Virus record (IMG/VR): IMGVR_UViG_3300027865_000011
Coordinates: 1 to 56,059 of that record
Length of the DNA: 56,059 bases
Origin: a virus
Taxonomy: Duplodnaviria; Caudoviricetes
Direction: 5' to 3' (one strand)
Under the pieces are notes generated by a model that saw nothing but the letters and a program-made list of their open reading frames with translations, searched no databases and had not been told where the DNA came from. Positions 44,186 through 47,225 of this stretch are shown here, piece after piece. Numbering within the stretch: the first letter of the stretch is position 1; each line of letters opens with the position of its first letter. The translations under genes were made by a program, and so were the position numbers.

Positions 44186-45130
44186 TTGGCAACGTACTAC
44201 AACGAAATCGATCCTTTCGCTGTGTCCTGGTTGCGAAATCTGATCTCTCGGAAGTTGATAGCCGATGGTGAGGTAGATGACAGGAGTATAGAAGATGTTT
44301 CCCCAGCAGAACTCCGGGGATACAAGCAATGCCACTTCTTCGCAGGGATCGGTGGATGGTCACTTGCCCTGCGACAAGCAGGATGGCCGGATGATCGATC
44401 AGTGTGGACAGGATCCTGCCCTTGCCAACCTTTCAGCACGGCAGGTAAAGGAGAGGGGTTTGCTGACAAGCGGCACCTGTGGCCCTCCTTCTTCTGGCTC
44501 ATCCAACAGTGCAGACCTGACACTGTCTTTGGGGAACAAGTTGCAGGAAAGCCAGGTCAAGCTTGGCTCGACCTTGTATCGACAGACCTGGAAAATGAGC
44601 ACTACCGCTGCGGGTCGGCAGTTACCGCGGCTTGTGGCGTCGGGGCGCCGCATCTTAGACGACGCATTTATTGGGTGGCCGACACCCACGGTAAAAGACA
44701 GTTCGAACGCCAGGAACCGAACAGCTCAAAGAAGCTCCCAAGACAGCAAGCACCACGACGGAGAGACGTTGGTGGATGCTGTGGACCTCACAGGATGGCC
44801 GACGCCCAGCGCGAACGAAGCAGGAGGAACCCCAGAGCAATTCCTCGCACGCAAACGAAGAGCTGTCGCACAAGGGAAGTCCTTGGGGATCTCGTTGACG
44901 AGTTTGAATCTTGTGGCGGGCCTGACAGGCCCCAACCGACGAACGGCTTCTGGCGAGATCCTGATTGGCTCCTCTGCCGAGATGACAAGTGGCGGTCAGT
45001 TGAACCCGGAACATTCCCGTTGGTTGATGGGCTTCCCGGCCGAGTGGGAAGACTGCGCGGATACGGGAATGCAATCGTCGTCCCGCAAGCGCGCCAGTTC
45101 GTCGAAGCCTACCAAGAAGGAAGCAATTAA
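44186..45130 (+). CDS. C5 cytosine methyltransferase, alpha subunit (M.EcoHK31I-like)
   Basis: [42 protein letters not shown]; GGAG + TTG start. Confidence 0.9.
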
Positions 45131-45131
45131 G
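44460..45131 (+). CDS. Methyltransferase beta subunit in alternative frame, open into polymerase
   Basis: TSGTCG...GSTLY..TWK...GWPTP...[18 protein letters not shown]; AAGGAG before TTG 44460; no stop before 47225. Confidence 0.8.
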
Positions 45132-47225
45132 ATGCGTCTGATAGCGATGGACACCGAGACCTACCCGATGAAAACAGGGTGCACACTGCCCAAGCCGGTG
45201 TGCTTGCAACTCGCCACCAGGGCCAGCGAGGACGCATTAGAGATCGAGGTGCTTCTGCGAGACGACCCAAGAGCTCTCCAACTCTTGATTGGTGCCCTCC
45301 AAGATCCCGAAGTCCACTTCACTGGAGTCTACATAGCCTACGACTTCGGGGTGCTCTGCGGTCAGTGGCCCCAGCTATGGTCCCTCGTCTGGCAAGCCTA
45401 CGAAGACGAGCGCATCCATGATCTAACCCTCATGGACAAGTTGCTGCGGATCAGCACCACCGGGGATATCGAATACTTCTCCCTGCCAGACGGATCCCGC
45501 GGGAAGCTGGGCTACACGCTTAGCGATCTTGAGAATCGCTGGCTGGGCGTCGATCGATCGGAGGATAAAAAATCGGCCGACTCTTGGAGGGTCCGGTACT
45601 GCGAGCTGGATGGCGTCCCTGTGGCGGAGTGGCCCGCAGATGCTCTGCGGTACGCAAAGGACGACGTGGTAGGTCCTCTTCTGGTCCACGAAGCAATCCT
45701 CCAAGAAGCCAACCAAGAGGGGCACGGCAGCATCGTCACAGAGGCCTTTCAGGCGGCCACCAGCTTCGTCCTGTGCCTTTCAACGGCGTGGGGCATGGAA
45801 GTGGACCCCGAGCGCGTGGCGCGCTTGGCAAAGGCTCTCGACGAACGGATCGGCCCGGAGAAGATGCAACCGCTCTACGATGCAGGGCTCTTGTCTCCGG
45901 CTGTTCCGCCAATGCCCTACGCCAAAGGCACGATCGACAAAGCGACTGGCTTGGTCAAGATGAAGAAGGCCAAGCCAGAGGCCCGCAAGGATACAGACAT
46001 CAAAAAGTACATCGAGAAGATGTGCAACGACCGCGGTCTCGAAGTCAAGAGGACGCCCACCAACCAAGTCTGCAAAGACGCTGATGTACTCCGCCGGCTC
46101 GGAGATCTGGGCCTCCCTCTGCTGAGTCTCCTCGCTGATAGAGAAGAGATCATCAAGCTGAGAAGCACCTACTTACCGGTCTTGCAGAACGATCAAGGCG
46201 TAGTCCACTTCGGCTTCAACGCCTTGGTGACATCTGGCAGAACTTCCAGCCACGGAAGCAAGCTTTTCGCCTCCACCAACGGACAGAACCAGCCACGAGC
46301 CGGCGGAGAACTGTCCACGCGAGAGTGCTTTGTAGCACGCAAGGGGTGGATCCTTTGCGCGTCGGATTACGCGGGCCAAGAGTTGACTTCTGTAGGCCAA
46401 GTGACCCACAGTCTCTTCCCCGGCCAGAGCAAGCACCGCGAAAAGAACCTCGCTGGCTACGACCTGCACGCCTTCTTGGGCGCTCAACTCTGCGCCCATA
46501 TGGACGAAGACTTTGGGCAACTCGTGACCTCGCGCGGGCTGGATATCGATGAGACCTATCGAGCATTCCTCCAGTTCAAAACCTCCGAGGACGAGGAGCT
46601 TCGAAGACTCTTCCAGCATTACCGCCGGTTCGCGAAGCCCACGGGGCTGGGGTACCCCGGCGGATTGGGGCCCAAGACGTTCGTCGAGTTCGCCCGCGCC
46701 TCCTACGGGGTTGTCGTCGATCTGGCCACCGCGGAACTTCTGCGAAATATTTGGTTCAAGACCTACCCTGAGATGCGGCAGTATTTCAGCTGGATCAACG
46801 GACAGACAGACCCGCGCAACGTGGGCAAGCATGCCTACAAGTCGCCCATGGGCATGTACCGCGCGGGTTGTCGTTTCCCCGAAGCGGCCAACGGAATGGC
46901 GATGCAGACTCCCTCAGCAGAAGGGGCCAAGATCGCGGACTTCCGAATCACTCGGGAAATGTACGACCCTTCTCAGGGGTCGATTCTCCTCGGCTGTCGG
47001 ATGCCGAACTTCATCCACGACGAGTTTTTGACTGAGTTGCCGGACGATGATCGCGCACACGATCGCGTTATGCGTATCGAGGAACTCATGGTAGACTCGA
47101 TGCGCATGATTCTGCCGGACGTGGAAAGCAAGGTCGAGTCCGCGCTGATGTACAGGTGGTACAAGAGCGCCGAACCTCGCTTCGACGATACAGGTCGGTT
47201 GATCGCTTGGGAGCCAAACAAATGA
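45132..47225 (+). CDS. Family A DNA polymerase with 3'-5' exonuclease
   Basis: DTET, AYD, YAKDD exo motifs; [28 protein letters not shown]. Confidence 0.93.

Follow-up and report, generated by a model that had tools for sequence, protein, structure and literature searches.

The described system closest in layout to the locus treated here is the methyltransferase M.EcoHK31I (YGGCCR). Its alpha chain carries the motifs I to VIII and X together with the target-recognition domain and its beta chain carries motif IX; the alpha gene contains the whole of beta in a different frame, and neither chain is dispensable (PMC2836561, PMC3404938). Here we describe a phage locus at positions 44186-47225 of a viral DNA stretch of 56,059 nucleotides (Duplodnaviria; Caudoviricetes; IMG/VR record IMGVR_UViG_3300027865_000011; the whole stretch is called the window), in which a C5 cytosine methyltransferase gene, alpha, is overlapped by a second open reading frame (ORF), beta, which continues in frame into a family A DNA polymerase gene, polA. 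The two-frame METHYLTRANSFERASE is real and widespread in phages. With a probability of roughly 0.7 we consider that a mobile two-frame alpha/beta cassette was inserted directly before polA, and that the fusion of beta to PolA is a lineage-specific by-product, tolerated and not designed.

Comparison with described methyltransferases

In M.EcoHK31I a beta of 176 amino acids (aa) lies within an alpha of 309 aa. In the window, too, the alpha gene encodes beta in an alternative frame, here frame +1 with 279 of the 314 alpha codons overlapped. As read by eye, with motif IX assigned from a consensus, the window family also appears to show the same split of motifs between the chains. It differs in that beta spans about 89% of alpha and has an extra N-terminal half, predicted to bind alpha, as well as a conserved GWPTP region, in that beta runs into PolA instead of ending inside alpha, and in that the enzyme is a phage cassette. 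Moreover, the target-recognition domain is described on alpha in M.EcoHK31I, whereas the segment between motifs VIII and X of the window alpha is an unconserved and disordered spacer. The conserved GWPTP residues and a variable insert suggest that in the window family the recognition part is probably located on beta. Likened by layout and motifs, the window family would work like M.EcoHK31I in outline. A sequence-only reading of this DNA had taken the locus for a two-frame methyltransferase of the M.EcoHK31I kind. The coding in two frames stands, since both are open in 81 of 83 relatives, but a beta that ends inside alpha, which also belongs to that kind, is not what this locus has.

M.AquI is a natural heterodimer, whose small subunit bears part of the variable region, motif IX and motif X. 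The window enzyme resembles it as a presumed two-subunit C5 methyltransferase and in the placement of the variable region and the motif IX-like stretch on the second chain, but it has motif X on alpha. To our knowledge the M.AquI genes do not lie one inside the other. The monomeric M.HhaI is matched by the window alpha both by profile (residues 73-174) and by fold (about 170 columns); alpha differs from it by the absence of the small domain and of the motif IX part, which would be supplied in trans by beta.

In PHROGs the window chains are ordinary members of phrog_363 (alpha) and of phrog_1008 and phrog_31772 (beta), all labelled 'DNA methyltransferase'. The two frames are filed there as separate families and their overlap is not noted; in contrast to the window, no examined relative is joined to a polymerase. 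The searched literature, which included PMC13340338 but not REBASE or subscription journals, yielded M.EcoHK31I and M.AquI as precedents; neither a two-frame family spread across phages nor a read-through from a methyltransferase into a polymerase was found described there.

The alpha and beta chains

The alpha ORF (coordinates of all features in Table 1) matches Pfam PF00145 with an E-value of 1.6e-17 and 64.4 bits (cut-off 22), the match ending at residue 186, and contains the stretches FAGIGG, PCQPFS and GNAI, which bears out the C5 methyltransferase motifs noticed earlier in this ORF. It reaches 45.9 bits against TIGR00675, which is under the cut-off of 100.65, and it matches phrog_363 (E 5.4e-83) and, as a profile, M.HhaI over the residues given above (E 2e-15). 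A fold search with Foldseek places C5 methyltransferases on top, among them the catalytic domains of M.HhaI and DNMT1, aligned with the N-terminal 170 residues of alpha. By eye, motif I (FAGIGG) was located at alpha residues 52-57 (44339-44356) and motif IV (PCQPFS) at 79-84 (from 44420). All 61 of the 61 sequences have G54, G56, P79 and C80 in common. The names given to these stretches are the usual ones of C5 methyltransferase motifs. By its motifs and profile matches alpha is thus classified as a C5 cytosine methyltransferase catalytic domain with the motifs I, IV, VI and VIII. The alpha linker, about residues 169-248, is unconserved in the alignment and disordered in the model, and when alpha is modelled alone only the catalytic domain forms. 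The C-terminus is conserved again and carries the motif X-like GNAI (residues 294-297, 45065-45076). Motifs IX and X are therefore not on one chain, as the motif IX-like stretch LNPxHSRWLMGxP is read in the +1 frame.

The beta chain matches phrog_1008 (E 2.9e-31) and phrog_31772 (E 3.9e-26). It is composed of a TSGT stretch, two GWPTP stretches which flank a variable segment, the motif IX-like stretch at 45000-45047 and a basic tail at 45069-45131, which in the window has no stop. The GWPTP region, conserved and variable at once, is probably the DNA-recognition part. More than 5,444 protein clusters match beta, and of the 120 listed only one contains a Pfam domain (HNH). Most of the beta proteins in the large collection are unnamed or called 'hypothetical'. 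In several long beta forms of 500-680 aa (P0135-P0139, P0145-P0147 and others) the GWPTP-containing region is matched two to four times, so that in these proteins internal repeats seem to have enlarged the presumed recognition region.

Modelled alone, beta folds poorly, with a predicted local distance difference test score (pLDDT) of 57.8 and a predicted template modelling score of 0.27, as expected of an obligate partner. Together with alpha, and with the alignments A4 (alpha) and A5 (beta) made for this analysis, it gives a complex score of 0.92, compared to 0.39 for the best of three controls; the mark set for this score is attained by 58 of 80 solved complexes and by 2 of 110 mismatched pairs. 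The complex runs share at least 75% of their contacts, and the partner pLDDT is at least 64. The predicted interface is large and joins beta 43-136 to the alpha catalytic domain and beta 212-258 to alpha 249-312. The model supports binding between alpha and beta, as support and not as proof.

Taken together, the cassette would encode a two-polypeptide C5 methyltransferase in two overlapping frames of the same strand, in which the middle of alpha would be a mere spacer. Beta would start at its own Shine-Dalgarno sequence and ATG within alpha codons 33-38 and would contribute its N-terminal half for binding to alpha, its variable GWPTP part and the segment resembling motif IX. Both chains would assemble into one enzyme, as those of M.EcoHK31I do.

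The polymerase and its junction with beta

The ORF at 45132 matches Pfam PF00476 with an E-value of 2.6e-11. Fourteen homologous proteins were found in the search, of which seven, with 671-888 aa, were aligned. All seven begin their match at the methionine encoded at 45132 and share the start MxLIALDTET, with D7, E9 and T10 invariant; the gene call of P0005 opens eight residues upstream of this shared N-terminus. The only longer form is the gene call of the window contig itself, which has 976 aa. The Exo I motif DTET occupies residues 7-10 of the polymerase, directly behind the junction with beta. The common start agrees with the earlier proposal that free PolA could be made from the ATG at 45132, which is indeed preceded by AAGGAAG. 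The claim of an overlapping TSGT...GWPTP frame without a stop before the polymerase ATG was also correct, the frame being open from 44295 to 47225, and the junction peptide reads as it was given. The fused species, however, which had been put at about 920 aa, is an ORF of 976 aa (279 + 697).

In the proposed course of events the cassette would have become packed between the gene of a 173-aa protein (p173) and polA, with the TAA of alpha one base from the polymerase ATG. Beta would have come to be without the stop that its relatives have near the alpha end, and the polymerase happens to share the beta frame. A ribosome starting at 44295 would consequently produce the beta-PolA protein, in which the basic tail of about 21 residues (beta 259-279) could act as a linker. 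That beta, once translated, would here yield beta-PolA is a sound mechanical prediction, and the fusion is probably made. Free PolA would arise from its own Shine-Dalgarno sequence and ATG (45117-45134), probably coupled to the termination of alpha.

The closest polymerase proteins are P0002-P0004, with 64%, 63% and 54% identity, respectively. P0004 is named in NCBI as coming from a Rhodobacteraceae metagenome-assembled genome. Its table entry gives a longest contig of 56059, the window's own figure, which may be due to chance or to a fault in the table. A scan of viral contigs with the single polymerase protein found one relative (30% identity), and profile scans yielded, with 28-51% identity, 49 loci in viral, 1 in genomic and 80 in metagenomic sequences. 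This methyltransferase stands beside the polymerase in none of the 49 viral and none of the 80 metagenomic loci; 65 of the metagenomic ones include the polymerase N-terminus, and 51 of these have at least 900 nucleotides (nt) upstream. Other, weakly similar methylase pieces occur in L021 and in L017/L156, away from the polymerase. Among the polymerase-related viral contigs (L005-L054) with enough upstream sequence, most have their genes ordered as helicase, p173, pol. The methyltransferase is therefore an insertion between p173 and pol, where it is found in the window contig only, among these polymerase-related contigs.

The comparison of the methyltransferase relatives leads to the same picture. 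In 82 of 82 the beta stop lies between -113 and +61 nt of the alpha stop (median -29). It precedes the alpha stop in 77, follows it by 4-16 nt in four, and in L092 lies 61 nt past a premature stop. The window beta frame runs 2095 nt past the alpha stop and is the sole such case against the 82 relatives. Among the proteins that contain beta, 39 are longer than 489 aa, compared to more than 5,444 of normal length, and a PolA domain is absent from the other 38 long ones. Ten long forms were scanned with Pfam, nine with an N-terminal beta and a long extension as well as P0086 (455 aa). Six have a further domain after beta, namely an N6/N4 methylase, an SNF2 helicase, an HNH domain (three, including P0086) or a PD-(D/E)XK nuclease, and four have no Pfam domain. 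Such scattered and rare fusions to whatever lies downstream are the pattern that accidental loss of the beta stop would give. For the window the in-frame junction is statistically unremarkable, as it takes one frame in three and about ten extra stop-free codons.

These numbers bear directly on the idea of the sequence-only reading that cytosine methylation is tethered to the replisome. As a design, this would mean that alpha docks on the beta moiety of some polymerase molecules and methylation is coupled to phage DNA synthesis, with free PolA coming from an internal start. The frame is continuous and both frames keep the family-invariant residues. The model places beta up to about residue 258 on alpha and leaves about 21 tail residues that could form a linker, and M.EcoHK31I fragments engineered as zinc-finger fusions are described as a working platform. 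One other long form, P0144, joins beta to an SNF2 helicase. But the fusion is a singleton: an open beta-to-polymerase frame, which was to be looked for in related phages, is found in 0 of 82 methyltransferase relatives, and the methyltransferase lies upstream of the polymerase in 0 of 129 polymerase-related loci. The polymerase homologues have no N-terminal extension, the other fusion partners are assorted (N6/N4 methylase, HNH, PD-(D/E)XK), and with DTET right behind the junction an extension of 279 aa could equally hinder the enzyme. Replisome tethering by design is supported by no comparison, and we regard it as unlikely. We think it even more doubtful that beta-PolA is both made and used in this way, with alpha on some polymerase molecules methylating nascent DNA at the fork ahead of the host restriction enzymes.

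A sequence or assembly error, by which a true stop in the beta tail (45048-45131) was lost while beta is free as in its relatives, would be in line with the origin of the sequence from a metagenome assembly and with the stop near this place in 82 of 82 relatives. However, a Logan contig of 52,458 nt with a word depth of 18 shows 0 differences over 44100-45400 and no variant is listed. The Logan run is probably the source of the window contig. Since the same data went through another assembler the Logan contig is not independent, and the agreement rules out an assembler artefact but not an error common to the reads. In addition, alpha keeps an intact frame across these bases and is conserved up to its final residues, the site of the beta stop varies by more than 100 nt among the relatives, and four of these are already without a stop inside alpha. 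Such an error is therefore very improbable, and the insertion of the cassette before polA with an incidental fusion is favoured here as well.

Conservation of both reading frames

A blastn search against 50,697 phage records gave matches to 229, in all of them to the methyltransferase part only, and none of the 229 covers 80% of the query as a relative of the whole region would. Among the 30 records listed the methyltransferase gene has 71-77% nucleotide identity. The hosts of the matching phages include Edwardsiella, Xanthomonas, Burkholderia and a cyanobacterium, and in the Xanthomonas phage PhiXhv-28 both frames are annotated 'DNA methyltransferase'. The scan of IMG/VR revealed at least 567 confirmed relatives of the methyltransferase gene, of which 80 were kept.

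In the frame analysis, which comprised 84 loci (83 relatives and the window), a median of 89% of alpha is open in frame +1, compared to 17% in frame +2. The stops in frame +2 number 7-26 in 83 loci and 0 in the remaining one, the degenerate L003. L003 and L092 are also the two relatives in which not both frames are open. L003, from Pseudomonas phage PACT201 (1500-2730), is a decayed cassette with both frames in pieces, annotated 'hypothetical protein' and 'DNA methyltransferase'. In L092 an in-frame alpha stop at about 3864 lies within the conserved C-terminus and beta is intact; this stop could be a sequencing error, the mark of a pseudogene or a read-through site.

Selection on beta is seen in the codon alignment A4 of 61 non-identical alphas, where the third codon position of alpha is the second position of beta. 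Without overlap by beta, the entropy at alpha third positions is 1.49 bits (codons 1-30) and 1.51 bits (tail, codons 297-314), but under beta it is 1.00 at codons 40-165 and 0.64 at 251-296, with the lowest value, 0.25, at codons 271-285 under the LNPxHSRWLMG of beta. Alpha third positions are less variable only within the overlap. At the linker codons 196-210, under the second GWPTP of beta, it is alpha position 1 that varies, the wobble position of beta, so that beta is the selected frame there. The alpha and beta of the window retain all family-invariant residues. The beta ATG is present at the homologous site in 47 of the 61 aligned sequences, 35 times together with GGAG and 12 times alone, and the remaining 14 have starts close by. 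The rare codon AGG is enriched at Arg33, where 26 of the 61 sequences use it, compared to 131 of 1585 Arg codons elsewhere in alpha. In the window the alpha residues RSIEDV are encoded by AGG AGT ATA GAA GAT GTT, which at the same time gives AGGAG, a spacing of 8 nt and the ATG in frame +1. A +1 stretch of at least 279 codons arises in 92 of 5000 codon-resampled and in 93 of 5000 synonymous-permuted alphas. As a single sequence is weak evidence, the comparative pattern is what counts, and judged by the conservation across the relatives two-frame coding is highly non-random.

A separate beta would be dispensable if a single chain was made by two programmed frameshifts, with motifs I to VIII read from alpha, the variable region and motif IX from beta and motif X again from alpha. 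This order matches that of the canonical monomeric C5 methyltransferases, and a few database proteins switch frame, P0171 with an alpha N-terminus followed by beta, and P0156 and P0162 with a beta N-terminus followed by the alpha C-terminus. These three could stem from indel errors or represent natural single-chain forms, and have a bearing on the origin of the split. Yet the beta frame is open and constrained for about 130 codons upstream of the needed shift, its Shine-Dalgarno sequence and ATG are conserved, beta 43-136 is modelled in contact with alpha, and in 81 of 83 relatives alpha reads on without a stop across its unconserved linker. The experimentally characterised precedent consists of two polypeptides. 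We rate the chance of the double frameshift as very small.

Scarcely credible, finally, is the view that beta is not a protein at all and that the openness and apparent conservation of frame +1 follow from the alpha sequence and a G+C content of 57%: in synonymous shuffles of alpha the longest open +1 stretch does average 153-164 codons, and it reaches 279 in 2% of them, but within the unconserved alpha linker it is the beta frame whose positions are conserved, the constraint on alpha third positions is confined to the overlap, start signals are embedded at the beta start and the complex prediction is strong.

Several points weigh against the insertion of a two-frame cassette with a tolerated fusion as we propose it. 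Beta matches no family in Pfam and NCBIfam, its profile gives no match to the PDB sequences up to an E-value of 10, and its motif IX is a putative one, read by eye against a consensus. The open +1 frame of the window taken by itself is only moderately unlikely (92 of 5000). The complex may pass partly due to the likeness to solved single-chain C5 methyltransferases, and our own alignments were used for it. No RNA run was found to contain the stretch, and beta and beta-PolA are predicted products. The fusion may be conserved in a narrow clade with the closest polymerase relatives P0002-P0004, and the kept invariant residues fit a tolerated or a useful fusion equally. Lastly, the second assembly that confirms the junction is drawn from the same reads.

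Layout of the locus and origin of the sample

The gene order around the locus, at 41385-47225 of the window, is SNF2-like helicase (717 aa), 173-aa protein, methyltransferase and PolA. In the database the gene call for the window contig is the 976-aa protein P0001. The start of alpha was set by alignment to relatives which open with M..YYNEIDP.

Table 1. Features of the methyltransferase-polymerase locus in window coordinates; the Shine-Dalgarno entries of alpha and free PolA are read from the sequence.
Feature	Coordinates	Strand	Remarks
Terminator-like hairpin, GGGGGTTGAG...CTCAACCCCC and T run	44127..44171	+	between the upstream 173-aa gene and the methyltransferase
GGAG, candidate Shine-Dalgarno sequence of alpha	44174..44177	+	8 nt upstream of TTG 44186
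Alpha ORF, 314 aa	44186..45130	+	TTG 44186 to TAA 45128-45130; 945 nt
AGGAG, Shine-Dalgarno sequence of beta	44282..44286	+	in alpha codons Arg33-Ser34; 8 nt before ATG 44295
Beta coding part, 279 codons	44295..45131	+	+1 frame of alpha; ATG right after TAG 44289-44291
Continuous beta-PolA ORF, 976 aa (279 + 697)	44295..47225	+	no stop until 47223-47225
AAGGAAG, Shine-Dalgarno sequence of free PolA	45117..45123	+	within the alpha and beta tails
Family A DNA polymerase ORF, 697 aa	45132..47225	+	own ATG; one base past the alpha TAA; beta frame

The hairpin upstream of alpha looks like an intrinsic terminator. The RNA of 44120-44180 folds with -28.3 kcal/mol (z -2.32), and 4 of 200 shuffles are as stable. 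It was missed by a simple terminator scan due to the loop limit of 8 in that scan. Given this hairpin, transcription of the methyltransferase and pol may be separate from that of the helicase and p173, or may occur through read-through only. A scan of 43500-47600 found no sigma-70-like promoter sites, and the six terminator-like sites in the same region are no excess over the shuffle mean of 3.7.

The window contig is viral, complete-looking (97%) and present in one seawater metagenome run. No tRNA genes were found in the window. From the same seawater run (X1, records 2 and 3) short contigs match the window at 44327-44593 and 44987-45031, patchily and with 90-95% identity. As these contain diverged copies of the family, other phages in the seawater sample carry the methyltransferase cassette too.

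Significance

If beta-PolA was made and used, it would be a natural methyltransferase-replisome fusion which arose from the read-through of an overlapping gene. Even if it is only made, it would offer a natural test of whether a tie between a methyltransferase subunit and the polymerase affects the speed or completeness of restriction protection. As far as the evidence goes, the fusion is an accident, so that its value is that of a testable oddity and not of a new system; the run of beta into PolA is a new but probably incidental variant, and the gene itself is an ordinary family member. Much likelier is it that the near-complete dual-coding alpha/beta gene represents a very large phage family, of which the overlap is not noted in PHROGs and for the beta part of which Pfam has no model. 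Two proteins are encoded by nearly the same 0.9 kb in a deeply conserved arrangement, of which phage genomes offer hundreds of examples and metagenomic clusters thousands. As a rule the second frame is called 'hypothetical', or it is picked by the gene caller instead of the first. Annotation with one gene per locus thereby miscalls the enzyme as well as its neighbours, as is seen here from the polymerase, which was called as a protein of 976 aa.

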